A stretch of DNA of 64,000 nt, from the NCBI RefSeq assembly GCF_045641405.1, contig NZ_JAZUGX010000001.1:41233-105232 (forward strand), given 5' to 3'. The position numbers and the translations under genes were made by a program. Shown here in pieces: positions 15,758 to 32,518 of this stretch. The notes below the pieces were generated by a model. It did not search any database and was not told the DNA's origin. It saw only the letters and a program-made list of their open reading frames with translations. How positions within the stretch are numbered: the stretch's first letter is position 1; each line of letters opens with the position of its first letter. This DNA is from Treponema sp. (GTDB taxonomy: Bacteria; Spirochaetota; Spirochaetia; Treponematales; Treponemataceae).

Positions 15758-16106
15758 GGGCAGAACGCTGGCTCATTTTTGCCTTGAGGGAACTGATTTC
15801 TTTTTTTACGTTCTCCCTGGCGTTTCCTGCAATTGCCTGTTCACATGCAGAGCTTACGGCAGTTATCCTTCCGAGGATATCCTGCTCAAGCTTTGCTGCA
15901 AGAATTTCCTTAGACTCCTCGATTGAAGCAGCTTCTTCGGCAATCGATGCAATTTCCGCTTTTTCCACCTCAAAGGTATCATTGAGATTTCCAGATTTTT
16001 CAACAAGAAGGACCATGTGCCTGTTGATCTGTTCTATCAGACTTGGACCTGCTGGCTTTTCTTCCTTCTTTCTAAAAATATTCTTTATCATATCAGCAAC
16101 TGCCAT
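15750..16106 (-). CDS. Hypothetical helical protein (118 aa), last gene of the aryl-polyene operon
   Basis: The ATG immediately follows the TAA of the upstream KS gene (TAAATG), with GGAG upstream. Charged, helix-like composition; no recognisable motif. Confidence 0.65.
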   Translation of the reverse strand: MAVADMIKNIFRKKEEKPAGPSLIEQINRHMVLLVEKSGNLNDTFEVEKAEIASIAEEAASIEESKEILAAKLEQDILGRITAVSSACEQAIAGNARENVKKEISSLKAKMSQRSALK

Positions 16107-17372
16107 TTAGTTTTCGCTCCATTTTCTGAAGATGAGGGATGTGTTGACTCCGCCAAATGCAAAATTGTTTGACATTACATACTCTGCATCAATTTCCCGT
16201 CCATCACCCATGATGTAGTCCAAAGGTGCACATTCAGGATCCACCTCAGAAAGATTGAGGTTTGGATGGAACCATCCTTCATTCATCATATTTATTGTAA
16301 GCCATGACTCTATGGCTCCGCAAGCACCCAGTGTATGCCCAATGTAACTCTTTGTGGTACTGACTGGAACCGCACGGTTAAAGACCTTGTAAACGGCATT
16401 GCTTTCCGAAACATCACCGTGGGCTGTCGCCGTTCCATGAGCATTGACATAGGCAATGTCTTCTGGAGACACCTTTGCATCATCAAGGGCAAGCTTAAGG
16501 GCAACCGCCTGAGTCTCGCTGTTTGGACTTGTGATATGTGTACCGTCCATGTTCGTTCCAAAACCTGCGACCTCCGCATAGATTCTGGCACCACGCTTGA
16601 CGGCATGCTCCATGTCCTCAAGGATCAACGTTCCTGCACCTTCTCCGATTACAAGACCGTCTCTTTTTGCATCCCATGCCGTAGGCGTTGTCTCTGGTGC
16701 GGAATTTCTTGCACTGGCGGCTCCCATGACATCAAAGATGGCACTGTCGGCAGCGGAAAGTTCATCCGCCCCACCTGCGATCATCATATCCTGCCTTCCG
16801 TCCGAGATTGCTTCGTAAGCATATCCTATTGCCTGACTTCCAGAAGTACACGCCGTATCCGTTACGATCACACGACCACGGATCTGATAATAGATGCTTA
16901 GATTGGCGGCACAGGTCTGAGGCATGCACTTGATGTAGGTCTGGGAATCGACCTTGCTGAAGTCTCCCCTTTCCACTATGCCGATCATGTCAGACAAAGC
17001 CTGCATGGAACCCATACAGCATCCATAGGCAATGCCAGTCCTTCCATTCTTAATTTCTTCTATGGAATTTCCTTCTTCATCAAGAAGACCTGCCATCCTG
17101 AGGGCATCGTCTGTTGCCACAAGAGACAAAAGTCCAACTCGGCCCATTCCGCGTATCTTCTTTCTTGGAAATTTTGGAAGCTCCTCTGTATAAGGGCAGG
17201 CAAGCTTTGTGTTCATCTTGTCCAGATGTTCCCATTCCTGCATGTACTTTATGAGGTTTTTCTTTTCCTTTAATCTTGAGTATGCTTCGTCCCAGCTGCG
17301 ACCAAGTGCCGAAAGCATTCCAGCACCAGTAACAACAACACGTCGCTTTCCATTAGGCTTTGTGAATGTCAT
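16107..17372 (-). CDS. Beta-ketoacyl-ACP synthase (FabF-like; ApeR-type)
   Basis: Catalytic TACTSG (Cys), HGTAT and KSYIGHTLGA (His-His), C-terminal NNFAFGGVN; last KS in ape-like order. Confidence 0.9.
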   Translation of the reverse strand: MTFTKPNGKRRVVVTGAGMLSALGRSWDEAYSRLKEKKNLIKYMQEWEHLDKMNTKLACPYTEELPKFPRKKIRGMGRVGLLSLVATDDALRMAGLLDEEGNSIEEIKNGRTGIAYGCCMGSMQALSDMIGIVERGDFSKVDSQTYIKCMPQTCAANLSIYYQIRGRVIVTDTACTSGSQAIGYAYEAISDGRQDMMIAGGADELSAADSAIFDVMGAASARNSAPETTPTAWDAKRDGLVIGEGAGTLILEDMEHAVKRGARIYAEVAGFGTNMDGTHITSPNSETQAVALKLALDDAKVSPEDIAYVNAHGTATAHGDVSESNAVYKVFNRAVPVSTTKSYIGHTLGACGAIESWLTINMMNEGWFHPNLNLSEVDPECAPLDYIMGDGREIDAEYVMSNNFAFGGVNTSLIFRKWSEN

Positions 17373-17374
17373 TG

Positions 17375-18103
17375 TCAGATCAATCCTCCGTTAACAGAGA
17401 TAACCTGACGGGTGATATAACCAGCTTCCTCGGAAAGAAGAAAGACCGCAAGGGCACTTACTTCCGAAGGTTTTCCTGCACGTTTCATTGGAATCGTCTG
17501 CATTATCATTTCCTGAGGGGCATCCTTTATCATATCCGTTTCAATAAGACCAGGTGCAATGCAGTTCACAGTGATTGAGCGGCTGGCAAGTTCCGTGGCA
17601 AGGGACTTTGTCGCACCGATGATACCAGCCTTTGAGGCACTGTAATTTGTCTGACCTCTATTTCCCATGATGCCGCTGACGGAAGCAATGGTGATGATGC
17701 GTCCCTTTTTCTTTCTTGCCAATGGCATCACAAGAGGATTGAGCACATTGAAAAAACTGTCCAGATTTGTATGGACTACGCTGTCCCATTCTTCTCCGCT
17801 CAAGCCTGCAAAGGTATTGTCCTTTGTTATGCCCGCATTGCTTACGATTCCCCAGAGGGCACCATGAGTTTCTGTCATTGCATCAAGTTTTATCTTACAG
17901 TCATCGCGGTCGGTGATGTCAAACTGGATGAGTTCTCCATTGCCACCGAAAGACTTTATCTCTTCAAGCAGACTTTCTGCTTTTTCCTTTCCACGGTTGT
18001 AGTGGCAGATAACATAGTAGCCTGCCTTGGCGCAATCCAAGGCTATCGCTCTTCCTATTCCACCTGAGGCACCTGTAACCAAAACCTTCTTATCTTCATT
18101 CAT
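17375..18103 (-). CDS. fabG: 3-oxoacyl-ACP reductase (FabG-like; ApeQ-type)
   Basis: VTGASGGIG, SNAGI, YSASK, NCIAPGLIETDM, VNGG. Confidence 0.92.
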   Translation of the reverse strand: MNEDKKVLVTGASGGIGRAIALDCAKAGYYVICHYNRGKEKAESLLEEIKSFGGNGELIQFDITDRDDCKIKLDAMTETHGALWGIVSNAGITKDNTFAGLSGEEWDSVVHTNLDSFFNVLNPLVMPLARKKKGRIITIASVSGIMGNRGQTNYSASKAGIIGATKSLATELASRSITVNCIAPGLIETDMIKDAPQEMIMQTIPMKRAGKPSEVSALAVFLLSEEAGYITRQVISVNGGLI

Positions 18104-18118
18104 TGCAATAATTCTCCA

Positions 18119-18598
18119 CTATCGGTTGAGGATTGTTTCAATATCCTCTGTCTGCATCACCGTTATTGTCGCTTCAACTGCAGTTTCAGTCGCTTCTGGC
18201 GAAACATAGGCTGCACATTTATAGCGATAGATGTGGCTTTCGTCGTCCCTATATTCTTCTACGGCAGCCGCCTTTATGGTCGTTCCAGCCTTGAATACTT
18301 CAATATTCGACTCAAATCCAATGACGCTGAGGATGCATCCAGCCTTAGGTTCAATTCCGTAGAAGTTGTCATGAATTCCAGTGAGCGCCGATATGGCCTG
18401 AGCCATGATCTCAAAAGTACACCAGTTTGGGATTCCATCCAGTTCCTTTTCATAGAAGATAAAATCTTCCGATATATCGGTTTCCACCGTGATGGAAAGC
18501 TTTTCAACATCGTGCTGGGTAACCCTTGAAAGCAGGAACATCTTTCCCTTGTGAGGAAGATATTCCACTAGCCGATCTTTTTCTATCCTCTGGTTCAT
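18119..18598 (-). CDS. Hotdog-fold 3-hydroxyacyl-ACP dehydratase (ApeP-type), 159 aa
   Basis: YLPHKGKMFLL and EIMAQAISA. Start moved to the ATG at 18598, which overlaps the upstream TGA (ATGA). Confidence 0.8.
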   Translation of the reverse strand: MNQRIEKDRLVEYLPHKGKMFLLSRVTQHDVEKLSITVETDISEDFIFYEKELDGIPNWCTFEIMAQAISALTGIHDNFYGIEPKAGCILSVIGFESNIEVFKAGTTIKAAAVEEYRDDESHIYRYKCAAYVSPEATETAVEATITVMQTEDIETILNR

Positions 18599-19791
18599 GA
18601 TTCCCCCACGACAAGGCAGCAGTTGGATCCACCGAAAGCAAAGGAATTGCTCATGCATGTCCTGATCTTTCTGTTGGCTATGGAGTTTTCCTTATCCACA
18701 AAATTGAGTGTAGGCATTTCCTCGTCGCGAATTCCATCCCACATCTGCAGTGGAAGCACAGGAGTTTCGCTGCCCCTGTTGATCTTTATTGCTTCATAGC
18801 AGACTGCAAGCTCAACGGCACTTCCAGCGCCGAGGGTATGGCCTGTAAATGGTTTCGTGGTACTTGCAGCAACCTTGTATTCCCCAAAGACTGAATCTAC
18901 AGCCTTGCTTTCCATCAAATCATTGAGCTTTGTTCCCGTACCATGGAGATTGATGTAGTCTATGTCAGTAGCCTTGAGACCTGAAGACCTGAGGGCACTT
19001 TCCATGGCACGCCTTGCACCGTCTCCACTAGGATCAGGAGATGTCATGTGATGTGCATCACAGCTTTCGCCGTAGCCAAGAAGCGCTATGTCAGTTCCAA
19101 ACAGATTTTCCTTTGTCATTACAAAAAAGGCAGCTCCCTCTCCCAAGGTTATTCCATGCCTATTTGCACTGAAAGGATTTGTTATTTCTGAGGAAACAGC
19201 TTCCAGCGCACCAAAGCCAAGGAGAACCGTATCCGATGCAATGTCCACACCTCCAGCGACGACGGCATCTGCAACTCCAGAGGCAAGCAGCTGGGCCCCC
19301 TTGACCATAGCCTCCGCACTCGAAGAACAGGCAGTGCTGAAAGAAAGGCATGGTCCTGCAAGTCCAAATTTTTCCTTTACGAATGTAGAAGGATAGTCAG
19401 CCCCCTGCATCTCTATGGAATATGTATCATCGAATTTTCCCGTCTCAAAGAAAGCCTTGTGTCCCGCAACGGAAAATTCAGTTCCGTTGTCGCAGGAGCC
19501 TACACAGACGGCAATGCGGTCAGGTCCGAATTTTTCTTTTACGGAAGCAACGGCAGAGGATATCTGATCCAATGCCATTTCCTGGATTCGATGGATCCTC
19601 ATGTCGAATCTTGCAGTAGTTTTCTTTAGTTTGTCTTCATCAATTCTTCCTGCATAGAATTCTTCACCTGAAACCGCAGCAACTTTCTTGATGCCGCTTT
19701 GATTCCCTTTTGTGACTGAATCCCAAAGTTCCCTGGCACTTAGCCCTGCACAGGTCACGACGCCAGGATCACTAAGATAAACTCTATTCAT
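18595..19791 (-). CDS. Beta-ketoacyl-ACP synthase (ApeO-type), 398 aa
   Basis: STACSSS, HGTGT, KPFTGHTLGA, SNSFAFGGSN. The start at 19791 (MNRVYL) overlaps the end of the upstream gene. Confidence 0.9.
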   Translation of the reverse strand: MNRVYLSDPGVVTCAGLSARELWDSVTKGNQSGIKKVAAVSGEEFYAGRIDEDKLKKTTARFDMRIHRIQEMALDQISSAVASVKEKFGPDRIAVCVGSCDNGTEFSVAGHKAFFETGKFDDTYSIEMQGADYPSTFVKEKFGLAGPCLSFSTACSSSAEAMVKGAQLLASGVADAVVAGGVDIASDTVLLGFGALEAVSSEITNPFSANRHGITLGEGAAFFVMTKENLFGTDIALLGYGESCDAHHMTSPDPSGDGARRAMESALRSSGLKATDIDYINLHGTGTKLNDLMESKAVDSVFGEYKVAASTTKPFTGHTLGAGSAVELAVCYEAIKINRGSETPVLPLQMWDGIRDEEMPTLNFVDKENSIANRKIRTCMSNSFAFGGSNCCLVVGES

Positions 19792-20383
19792 CGCCGACTC
19801 CAATGAGATGGTATTCATAGCCGCGAAGGATGTTCTTTATCTCCATGTAATTTTTTCTGAGAGTGATTTCTTCTATTATTTTGCTGCCGTCAAGAATTCT
19901 TCTGACTTCTGTTTCTCCGTCAGATTCAACGGTAAAAACAAGCTTCTGTCTTGCAAGTCTCTGAGACAGAGCCTCTGCCTTATATATCGCAAGCTGAATG
20001 TCCCAGACTATGTATTCAGCCTTAAGGTTTTCAGGGAACAAAGAAGATGAAAATTCCACAACATTGTCGCTGTAAGTAAGGTCACCAAGACTGGTTCCAA
20101 AATCATTGAGCATGGAAATGCTTATTCCTTTCTCGTCAGCCTGTATGTACAGAGGGAGAGAAAAGCTTCTGTCACCAAAGGATCCTTCAAAAAGCTGAAC
20201 TTCATCCATTGGCTTAATGATGTTGTCCGCAGTGAGTATATTTACTTTCTTAAGGTTGGTAACAAAAACGGCAGGTGTCTTAACCTCCGCCTCAACGCCA
20301 CCTGATGCGCAGGAAACAAAAAAAGCTGAAGTCAAAACAACCAGCGAGACAATTCCTGCACAGAATCTGGAAAATCTAATCAT
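19784..20383 (-). CDS. DUF3261-like lipoprotein (ApeN-type)
   Basis: Lipobox ..SAFFVS-C; QLFEGSFG..LND.G..L.Y pattern; sits between MMPL and KS genes as in ape clusters. Confidence 0.7.
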   Translation of the reverse strand: MIRFSRFCAGIVSLVVLTSAFFVSCASGGVEAEVKTPAVFVTNLKKVNILTADNIIKPMDEVQLFEGSFGDRSFSLPLYIQADEKGISISMLNDFGTSLGDLTYSDNVVEFSSSLFPENLKAEYIVWDIQLAIYKAEALSQRLARQKLVFTVESDGETEVRRILDGSKIIEEITLRKNYMEIKNILRGYEYHLIGVGDE

Positions 20384-20389
20384 AGATAA

Positions 20390-20418
20390 AGTTTAAATAT
20401 TATGGATATTTTTGTCAA
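20390..20418 (-). promoter_or_regulatory. Internal, apparently leaderless sigma70 promoter for the apeN-O-P-Q-R-like genes
   Basis: TTGACA (20418-20413) - 17 nt - TAAACT (20395-20390) - 6 nt - ATG (20383); no Shine-Dalgarno sequence. Confidence 0.7.
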
Positions 20419-20446
20419 ATTGACGGCGTCCATTGCATCATGACAG

Positions 20447-22798
20447 CTATCTTTCATAGAAGAATGAGCTGTAATATGCAGTTATAAGTCCAACCAGAAT
20501 TGCAAGTCCCATAAGATGCACAGGAGTAAAGGAACTCAAGGAAATCGCACCAAAGGAAATTGCCGTCGTAAAGAAGGAAAGCAGGATCGCATATGGTTCA
20601 AGCCTCTTGTTTTCCGTTGAATCATTTCGCTTCTGGGCTTCCACCATGTAGATGACATAATCAAGTCCAAGACCAAAGACAAGGATGATTCCAGTAATCG
20701 AGAAAAATTCCAGATGAATCTTTGCGATGGCAAAAACAGAGCTTACAAGGAGAATTATCAGCAGTGGAATCGAAATGATCTTAAGGGACTGCTTGAGCTT
20801 GTAGAACATCTTTAGGACAACAAAGATGAGCACATAGGCAACGGCAAAGAACTTAAGGATCATTACAGTAAGGATATCCATGTCGTGGCTGATGTCCGCC
20901 ATCTTGTTTATATAGAAAACATCCTGACCGTATTTTGCGGCAAAGGTCTTTCCATCAAGCCCTTCTGGAATGAAGGAAGGCATAACGACGGAATACCAGG
21001 TTCCCTCGATTTCACCGAGCCATGAATTGGCACAGGCAGTCTGAATGAATTCAGGAAAATCTTCCATGGTCGTGTAGACATTCTTTTTGGATTCCCATTC
21101 AGCTCGAATTTCCTGAGCCATGGATTCATCTTCTCCGATATAGGAAAGCTGGGCTTCCATCACAGGAAGAAGGCTTTCATAGATTTTCTTGGACCTATCC
21201 TGCTGCTCCCTTGAAGGAAGGAAGTCAGAAGTACAGAAAAGTGATATGCCCTCTATATTATTTCTTAAATCCGATACGACTTTCTTTTCCAGGACAATGA
21301 GCTCGTCAGCGCTTGATCCACGGATGATGAACCAGCCTCGTGGCGCATAGTTGAGCACTCTGGCACTTTCAATCTGATCTTCAAGCACACGACCTTCCAT
21401 CTTGTATAGGCGCGAAAGATCATTTTCAATCCTGCAGTGCTTGTATCCAACGCCAAGGCAAGTGAAAGCAAAAACAAACATTGCGGTGACTGCACAGCGG
21501 CCTGCAATTTTTCTGTTGTACCATTTTGGAATCCTTACGAACCTTGTTCCACGGACACGGCGTTTCTTGTTCTCTGGAACTGGAACCAGAGGATATATAC
21601 AGACAACGGAAAGGAAGGAACTGAAAATTCCTGACAATGAGAAAACCGACATCTGCTTAAGAAGCTCAAAGGGTGCAAAGATAAGGATTGCAAAACAGAT
21701 TTCCGTAGAGATGAGCGAAAGCAGAAGCCCCGAAAACAGATACTTCCTGATTTCAGCACCAGTTGTCAATGAAGTGTTTGCCTTCCAGTTGATGAAGTAA
21801 TGAAGGCTGTAGTCAATGCAGGAACCTATGAGGGATGTACCGAAAATCAAGGTCAGGACATGAACCCTATGGAATACGGAGATTGTAAGAAGGAATGCCG
21901 TAAGGACAGACACTCCGATGGAGCCAAGGGAAAGAAGAATAGGAACAGGTGTCCTGAAAACAAGAAGCAGCATGGCAAGGACCGCAGTGAGGGACACCAC
22001 GGAAATAATGGTAATTTCCTTTGAAGCTGCGTTTGAACTTTTATGGCTATGGAAAGTCGTACCTGAATAAACAAAGCGCTGGCCATCCTTTTCGTACTTT
22101 GAGCATACATCGTAGATTTCGGAAATTCCGTTCTTTCTGCTTGCCAGCGCAGAGCCTTCCTTGCTTAAAAGACCACGGACCATTACATACCAGCTGCCGT
22201 TGTATTCCTTTGCAAGGACATTATCCTTTAGTCCCAAAGCAGTGCCGTTTGATGCAAGGGAACCAAGATAATTTTCCATCTCCATTTCAGTCAAAAGGAA
22301 AGGATCCCTATCCAGATACCCAAGGCTTGAATAGGTGAAAGGGCTGTACAGCTTTTCCATTGCCTTTTCTGAAATTGCAGAAGCATCTCCTGCATCTTCA
22401 TCTATGAAATTGAATCTGTTTTCCAGAAGAAAATTTTCAAACTGCCCCAAGGTCTCTGTATCCTGATACAAGGACAGGGACTTGAAATTTCGGCTGCCTT
22501 TAAGCTCCTCGTAGACTTTCTCCGCGGTATCCTTTGCCGCATCGAAATCTTTGTTGCAGGAAAGGATGAACACATTGCGGCTGGTCACTTCTGAAAGCTT
22601 TCTGTCAGCCTTCTCGACCGATTCACCAGAGAACTGCTTTGGAAGCATGTTGAACAGATCAGCATCAATCTTCAGGGACCCCTTTGAAAACAGAAGGGAA
22701 AGACCGAATATGGCGAGGACAATGAAATGGGTTACAAGCCAAAGAGCAAAAAAGTGCCTGTTGGAAAATCTATCTGTTATTGAAGCAAGCTTTTTCAT
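20447..22798 (-). CDS. MMPL/RND-family exporter (ApeM-type)
   Basis: Two hydrophobic TM bundles with G.SLIGSCIDYSLH and GLGLDYVIY motifs, separated by soluble loops. Confidence 0.88.
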   Translation of the reverse strand: MKKLASITDRFSNRHFFALWLVTHFIVLAIFGLSLLFSKGSLKIDADLFNMLPKQFSGESVEKADRKLSEVTSRNVFILSCNKDFDAAKDTAEKVYEELKGSRNFKSLSLYQDTETLGQFENFLLENRFNFIDEDAGDASAISEKAMEKLYSPFTYSSLGYLDRDPFLLTEMEMENYLGSLASNGTALGLKDNVLAKEYNGSWYVMVRGLLSKEGSALASRKNGISEIYDVCSKYEKDGQRFVYSGTTFHSHKSSNAASKEITIISVVSLTAVLAMLLLVFRTPVPILLSLGSIGVSVLTAFLLTISVFHRVHVLTLIFGTSLIGSCIDYSLHYFINWKANTSLTTGAEIRKYLFSGLLLSLISTEICFAILIFAPFELLKQMSVFSLSGIFSSFLSVVCIYPLVPVPENKKRRVRGTRFVRIPKWYNRKIAGRCAVTAMFVFAFTCLGVGYKHCRIENDLSRLYKMEGRVLEDQIESARVLNYAPRGWFIIRGSSADELIVLEKKVVSDLRNNIEGISLFCTSDFLPSREQQDRSKKIYESLLPVMEAQLSYIGEDESMAQEIRAEWESKKNVYTTMEDFPEFIQTACANSWLGEIEGTWYSVVMPSFIPEGLDGKTFAAKYGQDVFYINKMADISHDMDILTVMILKFFAVAYVLIFVVLKMFYKLKQSLKIISIPLLIILLVSSVFAIAKIHLEFFSITGIILVFGLGLDYVIYMVEAQKRNDSTENKRLEPYAILLSFFTTAISFGAISLSSFTPVHLMGLAILVGLITAYYSSFFYER

Positions 22799-23396
22799 CT
22801 GTAGTTAATTCCTTAGGATGAGACTGGTTCATGAATCTGTAGAGGACAGCACCTCCCTTTGCTTCATTGAGGATGATTTCGGAAATTTCCGAGCTGACGG
22901 AGCTGCTTTTTCCATTGAGGACTATGCTGCTCATTACGGAAGCAACAGTCTTATCCTTAGGTTCAAGCGAAACAGTCCATGTATTGTCTGCACCTGCCGA
23001 AAAAACAAGCTTGAAATTCTGCCCCAGCTTCGAAACATCGTTTGAGAATAGGGCAAGCAAGGTTGAAGAAACGCTCTTGAAGGCATCGTTACCTTTTGCA
23101 TCAGTCACCTTTCTGCTTCCGTCCGCTCCAATCTGAACCATGTAGTCTTCACCAAGAACCAATGTCGAAGGAAAAGGCTTTTCTGTGCTCCAGACAATTC
23201 CCTCTGTACTGAAAATGAATTTTCCGTTTGACCTGAGTGTCTTTCCTGTCTTGCTGAGTGTCTTTTCCTGGACAAAATCCCCCTTTGTGATCCTGTTCCT
23301 TGAAAGGTCAGCGCAGACTGATTCTATTGAAAGGCTCTGCGCAAAAGTATATAAAGCGGCAAAAAGAACTGCCGTAAAAGCCATTATTTTTTTCAT
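22770..23396 (-). CDS. LolA-like periplasmic lipid/lipoprotein carrier (ApeL-type)
   Basis: Signal peptide MKKIMAFTAVLFAALYTFA; GDFVQEKTL..LRSNGKFIF..GIVW..EKPFPSTL. The track start (TTG 23402) is an alternative. Confidence 0.8.
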   Translation of the reverse strand: MKKIMAFTAVLFAALYTFAQSLSIESVCADLSRNRITKGDFVQEKTLSKTGKTLRSNGKFIFSTEGIVWSTEKPFPSTLVLGEDYMVQIGADGSRKVTDAKGNDAFKSVSSTLLALFSNDVSKLGQNFKLVFSAGADNTWTVSLEPKDKTVASVMSSIVLNGKSSSVSSEISEIILNEAKGGAVLYRFMNQSHPKELTTDEKACFNNR

Positions 23397-23429
23397 ATCC
23401 AAACATCTCCTGTATCGGTCATCGGCAAA

Positions 23430-23855
23430 TCATCCTGCAATGGCTGCCTTCATCCTGTTGATGAAAGTTTCTGGGCAGACGAACATGGTCTCACCTGTAG
23501 ATTCCTTGACAACCATCTGTGTCGATTCAGCCTTTGTTGTAAGCTCTCCTTTTGAATTGAAAATCTCATACTTCACCTTGAGGCAGTTCTCGTATTCAAT
23601 TACTGAAGAACGGATTTTTGCAACCTCATTGAAGTGGAGGGATTTCATATAGCGGACCTTTATGTCCACGACAGGAAAGGAATAGCCCTCATCCTTCATA
23701 TCTATATAATTATAACCAATTTCATCAAGAAGAGCACAACGCCCGACTTCCATGAACCGCACATAGTTTCCGTGATAGCAGATGTCCATGGAATCCACGT
23801 CGTAGAATTCAACCTTGAATTCCTTTTCTACTGTGAAATATTCTTTACTCATCAT
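23430..23855 (-). CDS. Acyl-CoA/ACP thioesterase, 4HBT/YbgC hotdog family (ApeK-type)
   Basis: VEFYDVDSMDICYHGNYVRFMEVGR. Confidence 0.88.
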   Translation of the reverse strand: MMSKEYFTVEKEFKVEFYDVDSMDICYHGNYVRFMEVGRCALLDEIGYNYIDMKDEGYSFPVVDIKVRYMKSLHFNEVAKIRSSVIEYENCLKVKYEIFNSKGELTTKAESTQMVVKESTGETMFVCPETFINRMKAAIAG

Positions 23856-24811
23856 TCAGCCTCACTCCAGAAATCAAAAAAGTTGTACCACTGGTTTGGA
23901 AACCACATGCAGTATTTTTCAAGCATCATCACATAGTTTTCACAAAGCCGCTTTATTCTTTCATCGCGCTCACTTCTTTTGCAGTCGGTAAAGTCGATGT
24001 CTGACCTGTGCATATACACGGCATTCACAGGACGGAGCATTACGGCTTCATCCCTAAGCCCAAAGCAGAAATAGGTCGGACATTCCAGAAGGGCTGCGAT
24101 GAGGAATACGCCATATGGGAAATTTGCCTCTTTGCCAAGAAACCTTGTCTTTATGAACCTGTTGGTTGAATGTGCGGAAATCCTGTCTCCTGTGAGCACG
24201 ACAATCTCTCCGTTCTTTATCTTTTCCTGCAATGAAATGATCGTCTCTGGTGTAATGTCGGTCGGATCAAGAGCGGTAAGTTCATAGTCAGGATTTATGG
24301 ACTTAAGAACCTTGTTGAATTTTTCAGAAGACTTGATTTCCATGATGACAGTAACAGGCACGACCTTGTCCACACCTGCCCTGCTGAAGGTTGAAAGGCT
24401 TCTAAGAAGATCTACATTTCCAAGATGGGAAGCAAGCATAAGACAGCCCTGTCCATTCTCAAGATTTTCCCAGTAGTCATCTATGTCGTCATCGTTGTAG
24501 AAGATATCTTCCTCGTCGATCTTTCCAATCCAGCCAGCGATTCGTTCAACAAGACAAAGACTGAAGGAAAAAAGCGTCCTGTAGGTCGAAAGCTTCCGAG
24601 GAAGATGTCCACCAGTAAAAGTCCTCATCTGGTTCTGGAACCTGCGAATCTCCGTCCGTGCGCGTTTTGAAAAAAGATAGTAAAAGAAAGCGACAGGAAA
24701 AATAATGACACTGACCACTGGCAAAGGAAGAACCTTTACAAGTCCAAGCGTCAAAAGAAGAGGGAAACTTGTCTTTACCTGCTCTTTTTCGTCGAACCAC
24801 TGTCTATCCAT
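23852..24811 (-). CDS. LpxL/HtrB-like lipid acyltransferase (counterpart of the C-terminal half of ApeJ), 319 aa
   Basis: ASHLGNVD, LTGDR, FLGKEANFPYG, PNQWYNFFDFW. The start at 24811 overlaps the GT stop. Confidence 0.82.
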   Translation of the reverse strand: MDRQWFDEKEQVKTSFPLLLTLGLVKVLPLPVVSVIIFPVAFFYYLFSKRARTEIRRFQNQMRTFTGGHLPRKLSTYRTLFSFSLCLVERIAGWIGKIDEEDIFYNDDDIDDYWENLENGQGCLMLASHLGNVDLLRSLSTFSRAGVDKVVPVTVIMEIKSSEKFNKVLKSINPDYELTALDPTDITPETIISLQEKIKNGEIVVLTGDRISAHSTNRFIKTRFLGKEANFPYGVFLIAALLECPTYFCFGLRDEAVMLRPVNAVYMHRSDIDFTDCKRSERDERIKRLCENYVMMLEKYCMWFPNQWYNFFDFWSEAE

Positions 24812-25565
24812 TTTTCCTTGAACCTCTTTTAAACATTCTCCAGACAAGGACGGGTGAACGGAACATCATGCCTATGCAAAGCCTTGTGTAGGTGAGTGAT
24901 ATATGAATGTTGTCCCTTACTACGCGGAAATTGGAAACACCATCCTTTGGATAGTTTACCTTTACAGCACTCTGAACGACAGGAATGCCCTTCCACATAA
25001 GGTGGACAAGTATGTCTGTGTCAAAACCCATATGGGTATCGATGATGGCATGGGATTTTAGCAGCTTATGGTAAGGAGCCACAGGATACACACGGAAGCC
25101 GATAAGACAGTCCTTGATTTCATTGGACAGGGTAACGATGTGCACCCAGGTGTTGGCAACCTTTCTTGCCTTAAGCCTTGCTGTAGGCGCGCTTTCATCA
25201 TATTCAGGATATCCGCATATGATTGCTTCTGGATTCTTTTCCGAAAGCTCAAGAAAATGCTTTACACGCCCCACATCATGCTGACCGTCTGAATCAATCT
25301 GAAGGAAATGGGTGACTCCAAGCTCATGGGCCTTGCGTACACCATCATTCACAGCCCTTCCCTTTCCTCCGTTACTGCTGCGCCATACAGGAACGACACA
25401 CGGATATTTTTCCACAACCTGACGGATGAATGCCTTGTCCTCTTCTCCGTTTCCATCATCGACAACGATTATTGGACAATTGAATTCAAGGAGAGAGGAA
25501 ACGACATAGTCCAGGGTCGACCCATGTCTATAAACTGGAATGATAAAAGCAAATCTGTTCATCAA
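24804..25565 (-). CDS. GT2 glycosyltransferase (counterpart of the N-terminal half of ApeJ)
   Basis: IIPVY, VVDDG, NGGKG, IDSDGQH, GFRVYP. Confidence 0.9.
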   Translation of the reverse strand: MMNRFAFIIPVYRHGSTLDYVVSSLLEFNCPIIVVDDGNGEEDKAFIRQVVEKYPCVVPVWRSSNGGKGRAVNDGVRKAHELGVTHFLQIDSDGQHDVGRVKHFLELSEKNPEAIICGYPEYDESAPTARLKARKVANTWVHIVTLSNEIKDCLIGFRVYPVAPYHKLLKSHAIIDTHMGFDTDILVHLMWKGIPVVQSAVKVNYPKDGVSNFRVVRDNIHISLTYTRLCIGMMFRSPVLVWRMFKRGSRKNG

Positions 25566-25951
25566 CTTTTTACCGCCGCAAATACTCCAGAAGAATAGAC
25601 CTTTGCTTCATCTGCAGAAGACCAGAGCTTAAAGGCTACTGAATTCTTCTCTGCATTGAAATCCAGCTTCATCCTGACCTTTGCATCAGGCAGAATAGGA
25701 GCCGAAAATTTCATCCTCTTGATGGACGAGATTCCACGGCTTACATGGAAGTATTTTTTTGAAAAACGTGAAATCAATTCAAACTGTCCTACGGCAGGCA
25801 AAAGCTTGAACTGAGGAAAATGTCCGTCAAAGAAATCACTTTCCTTTGGAACAACGAATTCCAACATAACGGAAGAGTCATCCTTGCTTATTACGGTTTC
25901 ATTTTCTATTGAATGGCTGCTCATGGTTCTATGCATCCTGCTGGTTTTCAA
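25562..25951 (-). CDS. FabA/FabZ-like dehydratase (ApeI-type); true start probably 25936 or 25924
   Basis: FFDGHFPQFKLLPAVGQ, MKFSAPILP. Confidence 0.82.
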   Translation of the reverse strand: MKTSRMHRTMSSHSIENETVISKDDSSVMLEFVVPKESDFFDGHFPQFKLLPAVGQFELISRFSKKYFHVSRGISSIKRMKFSAPILPDAKVRMKLDFNAEKNSVAFKLWSSADEAKVYSSGVFAAVKS

Positions 25952-27935
25952 ACATGGCGGCTATCTCATTCCTGTGCTTCTTACCCTGAACATCTACAGG
26001 AAGCGCATCCACAAAACGCCATTTCTTTGGAAGTACAACATTCTCAAAGAACTTCATGAGCCAGTCATGGAAATATCTGTTGATGAGGTATTTTTCAGTT
26101 CCTTCGAATTTCTTTTTTCCTTCGGCATTGAGCACGACCGCCGCCGCAAGAAACTGACGGACATCATTTGAAAGGGCAATGACCTTTACATCTGCAACAA
26201 GACCGCTTTCAAGGATCCTGTTTTCGACTTCCGTCATGGATATGCGTTTTTCCTCGATCTTCACAATGGAATCGCTGCGACCTTTAAGGAGGAACTTCTG
26301 GCCTTCACCAGTGAATTCAACAAGATCTGCCGTGGCAAACCCATCTGGATTCTTGATGTACGGTGATATGATACGAAGACATCCGTCATCACCTTTCCAG
26401 ACCTTTGCGTTGTCGAATGGAGTCCATACAGAACCATCCTTTGCCTGCTGGCGGTAGGCTATTCCACTTGTCTCCGTAGAGCCATAGACCTCAAGGGGAC
26501 AGAATCCAAACACCTTTTCGGTAAGGACCGCAAGTTCTGGGCTTACGGCACCACCACTGGTAAAAATCCATGTGTCGTCAAGGGGAAGCTTTTCCTTTGA
26601 TTCAACCGTGCGCTTAAGGAATGCTGGAGTCGCAATGATGATGTATTTGTCGTCCGTAAGCTTTTCAAAGTCCTCAGGAAATTCAATTCTTGTCCTGCGG
26701 AAAGGTACACCCAAAGTGAAAGGCAGACAGATCCCAAAAAGGAAGCCATAGATATGATGCTGGCTTACTGTCGTAACAAGACGGCGGCTAAGGAATTCCT
26801 GTCCCCATTTGGAGATGATGAACGCATTGTCTTCTTCAAATTCCTTCATGCGCTGGGGAACTGCCTTTGGAGTGCCAGTCGAACCTGAAGTATACATGAA
26901 GATGTTGGAATCCTCAGGATTGATGGCAGGAACGGTCCTGATTTCTTCTTCTGAAGGTTCCGCAGCATTTTCAATCAAGTCTGGGATGAAGGCAGATCCT
27001 TCGATCACCTCGTTGTTTTTCTTCTGGTCGGTAAGGAATTCCGTTCCCTCTTTTTTTATCTCTGCGATGAAAGATTCCGCGATGTTCTGCGTAAGGAAGA
27101 CCTTTTTGCCGCATTGGAGAAGCGCAATAAAGACAACCAGAAAATACCAGTAGTCTTCACAGTGAAGTATCCATTCCTCCGCACTCTTGGCAGAAATGTA
27201 TTTTCTTGCCTTTGCAGTGTCGCAGAGGAAATCCTTCCATGTCTTGTAGGATCCAGAAGAATACCTTTCGTCATAGCAAAGGATGTGGGAATCCTTTCTT
27301 GATTCCGCATTGAATCTAGAAACAGGATATGTCTTGATCATCTTTCCATCCACCTTCTTTCTAACAATAAATTCCACGGCAAAAAGAAGCCCCATGAGGA
27401 CATAGGAAATCCCGCCGTTATATATGGACCACACCCTGTCACTGGCAAAGAATGCAGTCCAGATTGAAACGCATCCATTCAAAATGAAATAGCAGCACCA
27501 TACGATGGTTACCTTGAAGCAATAGCGTTCAACCTGTTTTTCCCACGAGCTTCCCCTGATGGTTCGGTCCATGAGAGTTGCAAACCTGAAGATGATGCTT
27601 GGAGCTGAAAAAAGAGTGCTTCCGAAAGCAACAAGGAATATCAGGCTTATGGCCACAGAATAGAGCTTAAGAAAAATCGTCCTCTGTGTTATAAAACAAA
27701 AAAGACCGGCAGCAAGAAAAAGGGCCGATGACACCAAGGGGCGCCAGCTTAAGGCAGACTTTTTATCACTATTACCGGTTTTAGCGGTTGCACTAAGAAA
27801 AAATGCAGCCGCAAGAATCATTATGCAGAGGGAAAGAATCCTTACAGGCAGCTTGAACACCACCAGCATGGAGAAAACCAGCACTGGATACACAGCCGCC
27901 ACTGCATAAAAAAGAATCCTAAGGAACCTGGACAA
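25929..27935 (-). CDS. Fusion of a COG4648-like membrane domain (ApeG-type) and an adenylate-forming acyl-CoA/ACP ligase (ApeH-type), 668 aa
   Basis: N-terminal ~6 TM segments with YCFKVTIVWC..NG..W..YNG.ISY. C-terminal YTSGSTGTPK, YGSTETSG, FATAD, GRSD..VKIEEKRIS, P-x4-GK. TTG start at 27935 follows AAGGA. Confidence 0.87.
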   Translation of the reverse strand: MSRFLRILFYAVAAVYPVLVFSMLVVFKLPVRILSLCIMILAAAFFLSATAKTGNSDKKSALSWRPLVSSALFLAAGLFCFITQRTIFLKLYSVAISLIFLVAFGSTLFSAPSIIFRFATLMDRTIRGSSWEKQVERYCFKVTIVWCCYFILNGCVSIWTAFFASDRVWSIYNGGISYVLMGLLFAVEFIVRKKVDGKMIKTYPVSRFNAESRKDSHILCYDERYSSGSYKTWKDFLCDTAKARKYISAKSAEEWILHCEDYWYFLVVFIALLQCGKKVFLTQNIAESFIAEIKKEGTEFLTDQKKNNEVIEGSAFIPDLIENAAEPSEEEIRTVPAINPEDSNIFMYTSGSTGTPKAVPQRMKEFEEDNAFIISKWGQEFLSRRLVTTVSQHHIYGFLFGICLPFTLGVPFRRTRIEFPEDFEKLTDDKYIIIATPAFLKRTVESKEKLPLDDTWIFTSGGAVSPELAVLTEKVFGFCPLEVYGSTETSGIAYRQQAKDGSVWTPFDNAKVWKGDDGCLRIISPYIKNPDGFATADLVEFTGEGQKFLLKGRSDSIVKIEEKRISMTEVENRILESGLVADVKVIALSNDVRQFLAAAVVLNAEGKKKFEGTEKYLINRYFHDWLMKFFENVVLPKKWRFVDALPVDVQGKKHRNEIAAMFENQQDA

Positions 27936-27945
27936 AACACTTTCC

Positions 27946-28197
27946 TTACGCCCAGACCTTTGCAATGGCATCGACAACATCCTGGACGGTCTTCACTTCC
28001 TTGAAGATGGAAGCATCGATAGTCGGCTTTCCTTCTGGAGTATATTCCTTCATTTTAACTACAAGATCGATGGCATCGATAGAATCCAGATCAAGGTCAT
28101 CGCCAAGAAGGGCATCTGGGGTAATGTCAGCTTCATCAAGTTCAAAAACCGAGACTAGAATTTCCTTGAGCTTTACAAAAATTTCTTCCTTTGACAT
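27946..28197 (-). CDS. Acyl carrier protein (ApeF-type)
   Basis: DLDLDSIDAIDL (phosphopantetheine Ser); acidic, 83 aa. Confidence 0.9.
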   Translation of the reverse strand: MSKEEIFVKLKEILVSVFELDEADITPDALLGDDLDLDSIDAIDLVVKMKEYTPEGKPTIDASIFKEVKTVQDVVDAIAKVWA

Positions 28198-28207
28198 CCT
28201 GAACCTC

Positions 28208-28474
28208 TTAGTTTGCCTTTGCGCGTTCTGCCGTTATATATTCTGCAAGTGCATTTACAGAAGCAAAAACCTTTTTTGTATCTTCGCCTTCTGTTGCAAA
28301 TTTAATTCCAAACTTCTTCTTGAGGGCAACACCAAGTTCAAGAGCGTCGATTGAGTCCAAACCAAGACCTTCGTTGAACAAAGGTGCGTCATCAACTATG
28401 TTTTCTGGCTTGATGTCTTCAAGCTGCAATGAAGAAATGATTACTTCCTTGATTTCCTGTTTCAATTCGTCCAT
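28208..28474 (-). CDS. Acyl carrier protein (ApeE-type), 88 aa
   Basis: GLGLDSIDALELG; ATG at 28474 follows AGGAG. Confidence 0.9.
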   Translation of the reverse strand: MDELKQEIKEVIISSLQLEDIKPENIVDDAPLFNEGLGLDSIDALELGVALKKKFGIKFATEGEDTKKVFASVNALAEYITAERAKAN

Positions 28475-28519
28475 GATAAATTCTCCTGAGAACAAAAACT
28501 ACAAATAATGTTAACCTTT

Positions 28520-28549
28520 ATTATATAGTAGAAATGAATGCTGATTCAA
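28520..28549 (-). promoter_or_regulatory. Sigma70 promoter of the leftward ape operon, within the ~100-bp divergent gap
   Basis: TTGAAT (28549-28544) - 18 nt - TATAAT (28525-28520). A possible rightward -10 TAGAAT lies at 28552-28557. Confidence 0.6.
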
Positions 28550-28575
28550 TATAGAATGATTTCCACGAGGGAATT

Positions 28576-29691
28576 ATGGACAGATCCAAATATTCATTTG
28601 ACAAGTATAAAGATGACGACATACGCGCCATCGACGCACGCTTTGAAGCCCAGAAAATAGCCTTTGCCCCTATGACATTCCAGGCAATCAGGGCAATGAT
28701 TGAACTTGGCATTCTTAACCTTATCGAGGATGCTGGTGACGACGGAATTTCCATTGCCGACCTTGCAAAAAAGACCAGCCTTACGGAATACGGTGTGGGT
28801 GTCCTTTGCGAAATGGCATTGGGAATGAATGTAATCAGGATAACAAAGGATTCCACCTGCCAGAAGGATGAAAAGTACACATTGGGTAAAACAGGCTGGT
28901 TCCTCCTGAACGATACCCTTACAAAGGTGAACTTCAATTTCACCAACGACATCTGCTACAAAGGCGCCTTCAAGCTCAAGGAATCTGTAGTAAACGGCAA
29001 GCCAGAAGGACTAAAGGAATTTTCCGACAAGTGGACCGTCATCTATGAAGGACTTTCTCAGCTTGATGAACGTTCAAAGAAATCCTGGTTTGAATTCGAT
29101 CATTTTTATTCCGACATAGCTTTTCCTGTTGCCCTTCCTGTAGTTTTTGGAAGCAATGCACCAAAGACCCTTGTCGACATCGGCGGAAACACGGCAAAGT
29201 GGTCCATCGCCTGCTGCAAATACAACAAGGATGTAAAGGTGACCATAGTAGACCTGCCAGGACAGACTGCGGTCGCAGAAAAGAATGCGGCAGCAGCCGG
29301 TTTTGCAGACAGAATCAGCACCTGCAGCGGAAACGTTCTTGATGAAACTACAAAACTTCCAGCCGGTGCAGACGCCTACTGGATGAGCCAGTTCCTTGAC
29401 TGCTTCAGCCTTAAGCAGGTTACTAAAATTGCAAAGAAAATCTATGAAGCTGCCGGAGACAATACAACCGTCTATGTTCTTGAACCATTGTGGGACAAGC
29501 AGCAGTTTGAAGGCAATGCATACTCCGTAATGGCAACTTCCCTTTACTTTACCTGCATGGCAAACGGCAACAGCAAGATGTACCGCTTTGAAGAATTAAG
29601 GGATGCCATAGAAGCAGCCGGATTCCGTCTTAAGGACGCCCACCACAATTTAGGCAGCAACGCATACTCTCTTCTGGAGTTCGGCAAGTAA
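28576..29691 (+). CDS. SAM-dependent methyltransferase (ApeB-type aryl methyltransferase)
   Basis: N-terminal EAQKIAFAPMTFQA, VDIGGNT SAM motif, YWMSQFLDCFS. Confidence 0.85.
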   Translation: MDRSKYSFDKYKDDDIRAIDARFEAQKIAFAPMTFQAIRAMIELGILNLIEDAGDDGISIADLAKKTSLTEYGVGVLCEMALGMNVIRITKDSTCQKDEKYTLGKTGWFLLNDTLTKVNFNFTNDICYKGAFKLKESVVNGKPEGLKEFSDKWTVIYEGLSQLDERSKKSWFEFDHFYSDIAFPVALPVVFGSNAPKTLVDIGGNTAKWSIACCKYNKDVKVTIVDLPGQTAVAEKNAAAAGFADRISTCSGNVLDETTKLPAGADAYWMSQFLDCFSLKQVTKIAKKIYEAAGDNTTVYVLEPLWDKQQFEGNAYSVMATSLYFTCMANGNSKMYRFEELRDAIEAAGFRLKDAHHNLGSNAYSLLEFGK

Positions 29692-30329
29692 TGAAATTTT
29701 ACATCAGCAGTACAAAGGCATGGGCCCCTGGAATTGAAAACGGGCTTGATGCCATTCAGAACGAAAAGCTTTCGCCAAAAATTGAATTCACAGATCCACT
29801 GTTCCGCAGAAGATTCAGCCAGATAACAAAGATGACGGTTCAGGTTGTTCATGATGTGGTTGAAGAAATTCCAGGCGCAAGAGATTTCAAGATTGTTTTT
29901 TCTTCTTTCCGCGGTGAAATAGAAAGGGAATTCGCCATCGATAAAATGCTCATAGAAGACAAAATGATTCTTCCTGCCGCATTCTCCCTTTCTGTGTTCA
30001 ACACTCCCATTGCCGCCGCGACGATAGCACTGGGCATGAAGGGAGGCTATAGCGTAATCTATCCTTCAAAGGGATGCTTCAAGGATGCCCTTCTTTCTGC
30101 GGCAGCAAGCGTCCTTTGCGGAGATGAAAAGGAAATCCTCTTTGTCTATGCGGATGAAAAAATTCCTGACGAATATGCTGGAACCATGAAGAACTATGAA
30201 TCCTCTTCTGAACCTGTACCTTTAGCCTTTGCCTGCATTCTTTCTGCAGACAAAAAAGAAGGTTCTGTAGAATTTGATTCAGAATCTCTTGCAAATACTC
30301 CGCTGGATTTTTTAAGACAGGCGCTTTAG
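29691..30329 (+). CDS. Ketosynthase chain-length factor (ApeC-type, non-catalytic)
   Basis: PLFRRRFS, SFRGEIER, PAAFSLSVFNT; KS-like fragment lacking the Cys/His triad. Confidence 0.8.
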   Translation: MKFYISSTKAWAPGIENGLDAIQNEKLSPKIEFTDPLFRRRFSQITKMTVQVVHDVVEEIPGARDFKIVFSSFRGEIEREFAIDKMLIEDKMILPAAFSLSVFNTPIAAATIALGMKGGYSVIYPSKGCFKDALLSAAASVLCGDEKEILFVYADEKIPDEYAGTMKNYESSSEPVPLAFACILSADKKEGSVEFDSESLANTPLDFLRQAL

Positions 30330-30338
30330 GAAAATTCA

Positions 30339-31214
30339 ATGGCAGCTGAAAAACTTTCAAAAGAAGAATTCGACGAAAAATACAACTGGCGTGATTTGCC
30401 TAAAGTCTCAAACTGGATTGCATACACTTACCGTGCCTTCATGAAGCTTTTCTGGATCTTCTTCATCGGTTTCGGGGCAGTGATCCTTGCCGCCATCGTC
30501 TTTCCTGCCTTCAAGATTTTCATACACTCCAAGGATAGGTTCCGCTGCACCGCACAAAGGTTTGTCTCCGCAACCTTCAGGTTCTTCATGTTCCTTCTGA
30601 AAATTTCGGGCATCGCAAAATTACTTACGGATTCCAGGGAAGAATTCCGCAACATGCATTCACGCATCGTTGTCGCAAACCATCCATCAATACTTGATAC
30701 CGTAGTACTCATCGCCCTGATTCCAAACGCCACTGTCATAGCAGGCGAAAAATATGCTAAGGGTGTTCTTGGCGGAGTGATAAAGGCCTGCTACATAATC
30801 AACTCTTTGGATTTTGATGAACTCTGCAGGCGGTGCAAGGAAAGCCTTGATCTTGGAAGCAACGTAATCATTTTTCCAGAAGGAACCCGAACACCTCGCC
30901 ATGGGCAGAACAACTTCAAGAAAGGTGCCGCAAGAATCGCAAGGGCAACGGGCGCAAACATAATTCCAGTCCTCATTGCAGGCAGCGATAAATTCGGACT
31001 TGGGAAAAGCAATCCTTTCTGGTCCTTCAATCCTGTCGAGCAGCTGATCTACCATTTGATCATGCTTCCTGAAATCGACATATCTGAATATGCGGAGCTG
31101 ACAGATCCTATCGCCGCAAAGAGAATTACACAGAAATGCTCAGAATCCATCCACAACGCAGCGGACCAATACAAAAAAGACCATCCGCTTACACGGACGG
31201 TCAACAACGTTTAG
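30339..31214 (+). CDS. PlsC-like glycerol-phosphate/lysophospholipid acyltransferase (ApeD-type)
   Basis: VANHPSILD, IIFPEGTR, FKKGAA. Confidence 0.88.
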   Translation: MAAEKLSKEEFDEKYNWRDLPKVSNWIAYTYRAFMKLFWIFFIGFGAVILAAIVFPAFKIFIHSKDRFRCTAQRFVSATFRFFMFLLKISGIAKLLTDSREEFRNMHSRIVVANHPSILDTVVLIALIPNATVIAGEKYAKGVLGGVIKACYIINSLDFDELCRRCKESLDLGSNVIIFPEGTRTPRHGQNNFKKGAARIARATGANIIPVLIAGSDKFGLGKSNPFWSFNPVEQLIYHLIMLPEIDISEYAELTDPIAAKRITQKCSESIHNAADQYKKDHPLTRTVNNV

Positions 31215-32518
31215 TTTGCAAGTTCCTTTATGATGCGTCCAAGTCTTTCATTGACTTCTTTGTAGACTTCTTCCTTGTTGATGAAGGCAAAGTTTCCGTC
31301 GCGGTAAACTACTCGGCCGTCAATCATGTTCATCACAATGTTTGAACTCTGTGCACTGAAAACAACGTTGGCAAGAGTGTCAAAATCCGGCTGCATGTTT
31401 GGTGTCATAAGGTCAAAGACAATCATGTCCGCCTTGTTGCCAACTTTGATTGCACCGCAGTCTTTTCTTCCCTGGGCAAGGGCACCGTTTACAGTTGCCA
31501 TCTTAACAATGTCTGCTGCAGAAACCGCATTGGCATCTTTTGTTGCACCGCGGCAAAGAAGGGCGGCAACATGGATTTCTTCCATCATATCCAGATTGTT
31601 GTTGCTTGAAGCACCATCAGTTCCTATGCAGACCTTGAGTCCCTTTTCCACCCAACGCTTTACAGGAGCAATGCCGCTGCCAAGCTTAAGGTTGCTTGAA
31701 GGATTGTGAACTAGGAAAGAACCAGCCTTCTTCAAAAGCTCCTCGTCTTCTTCGGTTACATAAACGCAGTGGGCAAACTGACACTGACTTTCAAGGACAC
31801 CTGCATTTTCCATGAACTCGGCAGGGGTCTTTCCTTCATGTCGTTCCTTACATTCAGTCTGTTCCTTTTCCGTTTCTGAAAGATGGGCGTGAATGTTGAG
31901 ACCTGCTTTCTTTGCTTCCTCAGCTATGATTTTTGCAACGCGGTCGTTGTTTGTGTATTCAGCATGAAGTCCCATATCCACCTTGATGCGGCTGCTGAAC
32001 TTTCCGTTCTTAACAGAATCAAGAAGAGCCCATGTCTCATTCCAGCCACGGTTGTTTGCAAGGTCTTCGTTCGGATCAAAAGAAGTAACACCGTTACAGA
32101 TGTTTGCCTTCATTCCACATTCATCAAGAGCCTTTGCTTCATCTTCAATACGGAAATACATGTCGCTGATGCTTGCACAGCCACTGGCAATAAGTTCCAT
32201 GGCACCGAGCTTTGTTGTCCAGTAAATATCTTCAGCCGTAAGCTTTGCCTCAAATGGAAAGATCTTTGTAAAGAGCCAGTCCTGCAACGAAAGCCCTTCA
32301 CCATAGCCGCGGAGAATTGTCATTGGAACATGGCAGTGGGTGTTGAAGAAACCGTTCATGAGGAACTTTCCTTTTCCGTCATAAATTTCTTCCTCTGCCG
32401 AAGTTTTTTCCGGCATGGTTGTACCGATATAGGAAATCTTTTCATCCTTTGTCTGGACAAACATATTTTCAAGAACCTTGAAATTCTCATCGAGCATCTT
32501 TATGTTTGAAAAAATCAT
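31211..32518 (-). CDS. mtaD: Amidohydrolase, MTA/SAH deaminase (MtaD/DadD family)
   Basis: NTHCH, HAEYT, HLSET, HCV, HNPSSN, GTDGASSNN. Confidence 0.78.
   Translation of the reverse strand: MIFSNIKMLDENFKVLENMFVQTKDEKISYIGTTMPEKTSAEEEIYDGKGKFLMNGFFNTHCHVPMTILRGYGEGLSLQDWLFTKIFPFEAKLTAEDIYWTTKLGAMELIASGCASISDMYFRIEDEAKALDECGMKANICNGVTSFDPNEDLANNRGWNETWALLDSVKNGKFSSRIKVDMGLHAEYTNNDRVAKIIAEEAKKAGLNIHAHLSETEKEQTECKERHEGKTPAEFMENAGVLESQCQFAHCVYVTEEDEELLKKAGSFLVHNPSSNLKLGSGIAPVKRWVEKGLKVCIGTDGASSNNNLDMMEEIHVAALLCRGATKDANAVSAADIVKMATVNGALAQGRKDCGAIKVGNKADMIVFDLMTPNMQPDFDTLANVVFSAQSSNIVMNMIDGRVVYRDGNFAFINKEEVYKEVNERLGRIIKELAN

Follow-up and report, generated by a model that had tools for sequence, protein, structure and literature searches.

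An aryl polyene lipid-type gene cluster of Treponema and a candidate ammonia-lyase route to its aromatic starter

We examined a stretch of 64,000 nucleotides from Treponema sp. (NCBI RefSeq assembly GCF_045641405.1, contig NZ_JAZUGX010000001.1, positions 41,233 to 105,232 of the forward strand), hereafter the window, in which an initial annotation made from the sequence alone had placed an aryl polyene (APE) biosynthetic cluster. The listing of open reading frames (ORFs), together with Pfam and NCBIfam scans, showed 17 contiguous and intact genes between positions 16107 and 31214, at the coordinates first proposed (Table 1). The annotated ape cluster of Escherichia coli CFT073 (gene table in PMC8253772) was taken as reference for orthology. 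By reciprocal BLASTP, each of the 17 genes had its counterpart in the E. coli ApeB-R set, and each E. coli protein matched the expected window gene and no other, which bore out the nearly one-for-one correspondence that had been claimed. The genome, 2.75 Mb in 75 contigs, is 99% complete.

Identity to the E. coli proteins is highest for ApeQ and falls, through the values listed in Table 1 and 35% for ApeG, to 27% for ApeH; the remaining proteins, at 23-27%, still have their best and sole match in the expected E. coli protein. The genes apeE to apeR follow the E. coli order on the minus strand, so that transcription starts with the two acyl carrier proteins (ACPs), and apeB-C-D (28576-31214) diverge from them on the plus strand across an 80-bp spacer. 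This layout had been read correctly, as had the presence of ApeG and ApeH in one gene. In the resulting 683-aa protein, BLASTP matched residues 96-210 to ApeG and residues 254-679 to ApeH. Conversely, ApeJ, a single protein of 558 aa in E. coli, is encoded by two genes, one for the GT2 half and one for the acyltransferase half. ApeA has no counterpart among the window genes in the BLASTP comparison with the E. coli CFT073 cluster. The fusion and the split are not assembly errors, since both recur in relatives: fused ApeGH is kept in more than 100 Treponema genomes, and a separate acyltransferase half of ApeJ was also found in three sister genera (genomes G113, G079 and G076). The ORF of the apeP-like gene overlaps apeO, and its real start codon may lie more downstream. 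Promoter-like hexamers occur in the spacer at 28549-28520 on the minus strand (10/12 matches) and at 28529-28557 on the plus strand. Neither sigma-70 promoters nor terminators were enriched in the cluster region relative to shuffled sequence, and the operon structure is thus deduced from gene spacing only.

All the catalytic residues that were checked are intact, in agreement with the initial annotation: Cys-His-His in both ketosynthases (KSs), the DSL-type Ser in both ACPs, the S-Y-K triad of the ketoreductase (KR) and the P-loop SGSTGTPK of the ligase. The ApeR-type KS, the FabG2 KR, both ACPs and the ApeI and ApeP models score above their curated cut-offs. The ApeH part of the fusion (E 1e-50 over 429 aa, P-loop intact) is predicted to load an aromatic acid on ACP. 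The proteins for lipid attachment (ApeD, ApeJ) and for export (ApeG, ApeL, ApeM, ApeN) are all mutual best matches of the E. coli ones. Pfam scans detected no enoyl reductase domain among the 17 genes.

In a maximum-likelihood tree, the two window KSs grouped with E. coli ApeR and E. coli ApeO (supports in Table 1), and the two FabF-like KSs of the genome grouped with E. coli FabF, apart from the window KSs; a grouping with housekeeping FabF, which the initial annotation had named as an outcome that would speak against it, was not observed. The FabF-like KSs are encoded at 22.5 kb of contig C1, beside fabD and fabG, and on contig C54, and acpP lies on contig C6. A tblastn search of the genome at E <= 1e-8 returned no homologue of E. 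coli FabH, the β-ketoacyl-ACP synthase III (KAS III). In the KS tree, the position of E. coli ApeR within the Treponemataceae sequences has only 88-90% support, which does not single out a donor for horizontal gene transfer. Overall, the identity of the locus as an ape-type cluster appears highly probable.

Table 1. Genes and spacer of the ape-type cluster (positions in the window; percentages are identities to E. coli CFT073 proteins)
Feature	Position	Strand	Evidence
apeR-like initiation KS, 421 aa	16107..17372	-	NF006587 589 bits (cut-off 470); 49% to ApeR; ApeR clade 100/99; Cys-His-His
apeQ-like 3-ketoacyl-ACP reductase, 242 aa	17375..18103	-	TIGR01831 FabG2 346 bits (cut-off 339); 56% to ApeQ
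apeP-like dehydratase, 179 aa	18119..18658	-	ApeP-like PF22817 41.7 bits (cut-off 27); best match ApeP
apeO-like elongation KS, 407 aa	18595..19818	-	NF006618 397 bits, just below cut-off 407; 36% to ApeO; clade 100/100; Cys-His-His
apeN-like DUF3261 (LolB-like) protein	19784..20383	-	PF11659 56 bits; best match ApeN
apeM-like MMPL/RND exporter, 783 aa	20447..22798	-	PF03176; 23% over 739 aa to ApeM, E 2e-34
apeL-like LolA-type carrier	22770..23402	-	PF03548, PF19574; best match ApeL, E 2e-21
apeK-like 4HBT thioesterase	23430..23855	-	PF13279; 40% to ApeK
ApeJ acyltransferase half (LpxL-like, weak domain match)	23852..24847	-	ApeJ residues 250-553, E 9e-42
ApeJ GT2 glycosyltransferase half	24804..25565	-	PF00535; 42% to ApeJ residues 10-242
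apeI-like dehydratase	25562..25951	-	PF22818 ApeI-like 40.7 bits (cut-off 28.5); best match ApeI
apeG-apeH fusion, 683 aa: N-terminal membrane domain (COG4648-like ApeG) and adenylating aryl-ACP synthetase	25929..27980	-	AMP-binding domains; P-loop
apeF-like ACP	27946..28197	-	NF003757 89.5 bits (cut-off 65); 44% to ApeF
apeE-like ACP	28208..28495	-	NF006617 100 bits (cut-off 70); 53% to ApeE
Divergent intergenic region, 80 bp	28496..28575		Presumed promoters for apeE-R and apeB-D, from position only
apeB-like S-adenosylmethionine-dependent (head-group) methyltransferase	28576..29691	+	PF00891, PF21212; FlxJ-family NF053543 448 bits, below cut-off 560; 47% to ApeB
apeC-like chain length factor, 212 aa, without catalytic Cys	29691..30329	+	PF13723 Ketoacyl-synt_2 102 bits; best match ApeC
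apeD-like PlsC-type (lyso)phospholipid acyltransferase	30339..31214	+	PF01553; 33% to ApeD

The closest proteins were all from Treponema metagenome-assembled genomes (MAGs), the best being a horse-faeces MAG with 87-89% identity, and the relatives carrying the cluster originate from the gut of horses, ruminants and humans. Fused ApeGH was detected in 173 genomes when species representatives were scanned. Eighty of these loci were retained for comparison, nearly all of them labelled Treponema or other spirochaetes, and in most of them the remaining ape genes stand in the same order. Dozens of Treponema species retain the cluster, its ORFs intact and its proteins 60-98% identical; cultured ApeGH carriers include T. 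bryantii NK4A124, T. porcinum ATCC BAA-908 and the two subspecies of T. socranskii. Fused ApeGH was present in 118 of the 301 genomes of an even sample of Treponemataceae, and an ApeR-type KS above the NCBIfam cut-off in 26 of 351 genomes of a Spirochaetota sample, in several families. As the Xenorhabdus ape cluster is silent in laboratory conditions, the Treponema cluster could also be imagined to be a horizontally acquired remnant, silent or in decay, that gives no product. This seems very improbable to us, given that all 17 ORFs and their catalytic residues are intact and that order and sequence are kept across many species and genera.

Previous studies using antiSMASH have listed arylpolyene biosynthetic gene clusters (BGCs) for Treponema_D sp900541945 from the human gut (PMC8863827, PMC10904984) and for oral Treponema (PMC8549736); for the oral strains, no role of any APE has been demonstrated (PMC8549736). 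These BGCs probably belong to the same cluster family as that of the window. The reports give the BGC class only, without gene content, starter supply or product. The rarity implied by the initial annotation was thus overstated, in view of these reports and of the frequencies given above. The cluster is real but fairly ordinary, a further member of a widespread family in a genus already flagged by automated mining, and what is new here, namely the architectural variants and the initiation route described below, is modest.

In E. coli, the APE starter is 4-hydroxybenzoate (4-HBA), made by UbiC (PMC8253772). A search of the 99%-complete Treponema genome found no Chor_lyase/UbiC; chorismate synthase is present. 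The sole aromatic amino-acid lyase (PF00221) of this genome, which would carry a 4-methylideneimidazole-5-one (MIO) cofactor, is encoded at G000:C16:1510-3087, next to a DUF1848 protein and an aspartyl-tRNA synthetase and with no ape genes as neighbours. The initial annotation missed it because it is encoded outside the window.

The best NCBIfam model for this lyase is that of tyrosine ammonia-lyase (TAL), with 426 bits, and the histidine ammonia-lyase (HAL) subfamily model gives 412 bits. Among solved structures, the lyase comes closest to the tyrosine aminomutase SgTAM and to AdmH (about 271-275 bits), ahead of HAL and RsTAL with 216 bits. In the alignment, the enzyme shows the ASG motif of the MIO group, Y-H at the Watts selectivity switch (motif 1), GNFYGGH, and, at the Berner position (motif 2), the Gln of NQDKVSMG, which SgTAM, phenylalanine ammonia-lyase (PAL) and TAL also have. 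The HutH-type enzyme of a sister genus that lacks ape has S-H at the switch and Glu (NKEDHVSMG) at motif 2. It has been described that HAL carries Glu at motif 2 and TAL/PAL carry Gln there, and that the proven TAL of the flexirubin pathway, FlxA, displays the same mixed pattern, with His in motif 1 and Gln in motif 2 (PMC3992019). Urocanase was not found in the genome, and therefore the lyase is not part of Hut histidine catabolism. A HutH identity was considered and is contradicted by the Gln of motif 2 (E414, a Glu, in P. putida), by a score of 401 bits with the HutH model TIGR01225, whose cut-off is 539, and by the lack of urocanase.

A broader form of this alternative is that the MIO enzyme acts as a HAL or as an aminomutase, so that the starter would be urocanate or a beta-amino acid and the product a heteroaryl or amino-polyene. 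In its favour are the His that motif 1 shares with HAL and SgTAM at its second position, the small difference between the HAL and TAL scores and the aminomutases among the nearest structures. Nevertheless, Gln at motif 2 is the discriminator of TAL/PAL from HAL, the characterised FlxA is equally mixed, and ApeB, a methyltransferase directed at a phenol, is kept; we find such a starter improbable.

The strongest evidence that ties the lyase to the ape cluster is its genomic association in relatives. In genome G113, the lyase orthologue is part of the ape operon, flanked by the acyltransferase and thioesterase genes; in G076, it is found between the thioesterase and the acyltransferase of the ape cluster; in G079, it begins 40 nt past apeR. 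In G267, which belongs to the same genus as the window, an orthologue with 84% identity stands about 0.5 kb after apeR, and in G067 and G088 the distance from apeR to the lyase is 2-3 kb. This linkage was seen only in whole-genome searches and fetched loci, the lyase being within 10 kb of ApeGH in 0 of the 80 retained loci. We also observed in G267, G067 and G088, all of the window's own genus, that insertions of 7 to 40 kb set apeR and the lyase apart from apeQ and the remaining ape genes, which indicates that the ape cluster is being rearranged within this genus.

Co-occurrence points in the same direction. Among the 301 Treponemataceae genomes, 81 had both lyase and ape, 1 the lyase only, 37 ape only and 182 neither, so that 81 of 82 lyase carriers also have ape. 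The single exception, G244, is genuine, as it lacks the ApeR-type KS as well as ApeGH. Based on this association, the lyase is most likely a functional partner of the ape cluster that supplies 4-coumarate. That the aromatic starter is indeed obtained through it, as 4-coumarate from tyrosine rather than as 4-HBA from UbiC, we regard as somewhat probable. A literature search joining aryl polyene with ammonia lyase returned nothing relevant.

Several observations weigh against this route. The lyase lies on a different contig from the cluster in this genome, and it scores below the cut-off of every curated NCBIfam model. Its motif 1 is unusual, Y-H here and F-H in the sister genera, and its sequence would be compatible with a lyase or an aminomutase, acting on Tyr or on Phe. 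The p-value of the co-occurrence (Fisher, p = 6e-43) takes no account of phylogeny, and 37 of the 118 ApeGH-positive genomes have no lyase, which is thus not obligatory. Also, the ApeH domain does not predict its own substrate: its top match is a weak one to TIGR02372 (4-coumarate-CoA ligase), which we rejected as substrate evidence because it is equally the top match of the 4-HBA-loading E. coli ApeH.

The genomes without lyase, among which are the close relatives G279, G262 and G230, raise another explanation, in which the same APE lipid cluster would use a starter scavenged from the plant cell wall in the herbivore gut (4-HBA, p-coumarate or ferulate), the lyase being irrelevant or auxiliary. 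The horse, ruminant and human gut origin of the relatives fits with this, the herbivore gut being rich in phenolic acids, and so does a hydrolase of the BD-FAE type (feruloyl/acetyl-xylan esterase family) at 33919-34809 on the plus strand, 2.7 kb from apeD. This hydrolase might free hydroxycinnamates as alternative starters, and its nearness to apeD may be due to chance. Scavenging accounts poorly for the position of the lyase, within or next to the ape cluster in three further genera and after apeR in the same genus, and for the nearly complete co-occurrence among lyase carriers; moreover, several lyase-negative genomes are incomplete MAGs (85-95% completeness). We thus hold scavenging to be rather unlikely as the main source, and it is kept as an alternative or a supplement to the lyase route.

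The same association bears on the question of whether the product carries an aryl group at all. The ape genes of Xenorhabdus additionally assemble, on ApeF, a conjugated C26:5 acyl chain that has no aryl group (bioRxiv 10.1101/2020.12.19.423268), and the window cluster has no aryl-supply gene of its own; its product could then be a non-aromatic conjugated polyene or a fatty-acyl glycolipid without aryl head group. We consider this highly improbable, for the adenylation domain of ApeH and the head-group methyltransferase ApeB are retained, and the cluster is linked to, and co-occurs with, an aromatic amino-acid lyase.

From the reconstituted Xenorhabdus system and the known structure of the aryl polyene lipid (APEL), the following pathway can be proposed by homology. 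Tyrosine would be converted to 4-coumarate by the MIO-dependent ammonia-lyase encoded off the window, and the ApeH domain would adenylate the aromatic acid and load it on the ACP ApeE. ApeR would prime the chain, which the KS/chain length factor (CLF) pair ApeO-ApeC would extend with malonyl units, malonyl-ACP presumably being supplied by the housekeeping FabD and AcpP encoded elsewhere in the genome. The KR ApeQ and the dehydratases (DHs) ApeI and ApeP would turn each unit into a double bond without enoyl reduction, to give the aryl polyene, the phenolic ring of which may be methylated by ApeB. Then, ApeD and the split ApeJ (GT2 and acyltransferase) would join the chromophore to a sugar-phosphoglycerolipid, and ApeG, ApeL, ApeM and ApeN are expected to carry the lipid to the outer membrane. 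Taken as a whole, the statement that this is a functional cluster of the E. coli/Xenorhabdus ape type, for the biosynthesis and export of an APEL started from 4-coumarate by way of the MIO lyase, appears likely to us. In G113 (locus L084, 4525-6209), accD/accA-like carboxyltransferase genes lie directly after the ape cluster, which suggests a dedicated malonyl-CoA supply there; no close homologue of these genes was found in the genome of the window.

The Treponema cluster shares with the ape clusters (apeA-R) of the APEL makers E. coli CFT073 and Xenorhabdus doucetiae all of apeB-R, the order from apeE to apeR, the KS/CLF pair, two ACPs, a FabG2-type KR, two DHs, the methyltransferase, the thioesterase, ApeD/ApeJ and the export proteins ApeL/M/N/G. 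It differs from them by the lack of ApeA, the fused ApeGH, the split ApeJ and the divergent apeB-C-D, which are co-linear in E. coli, and its host is an anaerobic spirochaete without UbiC in which the starter likely comes from a MIO ammonia-lyase. Such an initiation from tyrosine would resemble that of the flexirubin pathway of Bacteroidota, in which Chitinophaga pinensis employs the TAL FlxA and the 4-coumarate-CoA ligase FlxY (PMC3992019). The window also encodes homologues of the FlxJ-family methyltransferase (448 bits), of the KR FlxB (276 bits) and of LolA2 (59 bits); however, the Treponema proteins are below the cut-offs of the FlxA, FlxB, FlxJ and LolA2 NCBIfam models. Unlike in the flexirubin pathway, the tblastn search with FabH, which is indirect for DarB, found no FabH/DarB-like KAS III in the genome (DarA was not searched), so no dialkylresorcinol ester is expected. 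Furthermore, loading would be carried out by an ApeH-type ACP synthetase instead of a CoA ligase, and the genes for attachment and export are of the E. coli type. The system would thus be of the E. coli type in anchoring and export, and of the flexirubin type in initiation.

More tentatively, it is conceivable that Treponemataceae hold a hybrid APE subtype, with glycolipid anchoring of the E. coli type, Lol/MMPL export and initiation by an undescribed MIO-lyase subfamily. This subfamily could be defined by the [Y/F]-H switch, GxFYGGH and the Gln of motif 2, and both the substrate and the head group might then differ from those of known APEs. If this were true, the unusual outer membrane of spirochaetes would hold, as the product, a new aryl-polyene glycolipid.

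Few bacterial natural products are as widespread as APE lipids, which have been associated with biofilm formation and with protection against oxidative stress. APE clusters are common in other strict anaerobes of gut and mouth, and an anaerobic host is therefore not surprising in itself. The genes pflB (51942-54254) and pflA (51095-51838), already pointed out in the initial annotation, are present in the window. To our knowledge, full structures of APE lipids are known only from Xenorhabdus, and we know of no spirochaete, nor of any strict gut anaerobe, whose APE has been characterised; for spirochaetes, the earlier statement to this effect held in the literature that we searched. The Treponema cluster is complete and widely conserved, and the cultured carriers make its chemistry directly testable. 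Its aryl supply is probably an ammonia-lyase, which genome miners may easily overlook because it is often unlinked in this genus. These data should be of use for annotation and natural-product work, and will hold no surprise for specialists.

The flanks of the cluster are ordinary housekeeping genes. On one side, a Sir2-family deacetylase is encoded at 15020-15757 on the plus strand. Directly downstream of apeR, an ORF on the minus strand (15750-16106) encodes a coiled-coil-like protein of 118 aa, without match in Pfam or NCBIfam and not homologous to ApeA, which is conserved only in the six closest Treponema loci (63-76% identity). The other flank (31211-33353) contains a TRZ/ATZ-type amidohydrolase and a PNP/UDP phosphorylase, probably involved in the salvage of nucleosides or methylthioadenosine, and the amidohydrolase adjoins apeD in the closest relatives too. 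Upstream of the cluster, two very large adjacent ORFs occupy positions 1-14741 on the minus strand; one, which runs past the window edge, exceeds 2739 aa, and the other has 2120 aa.

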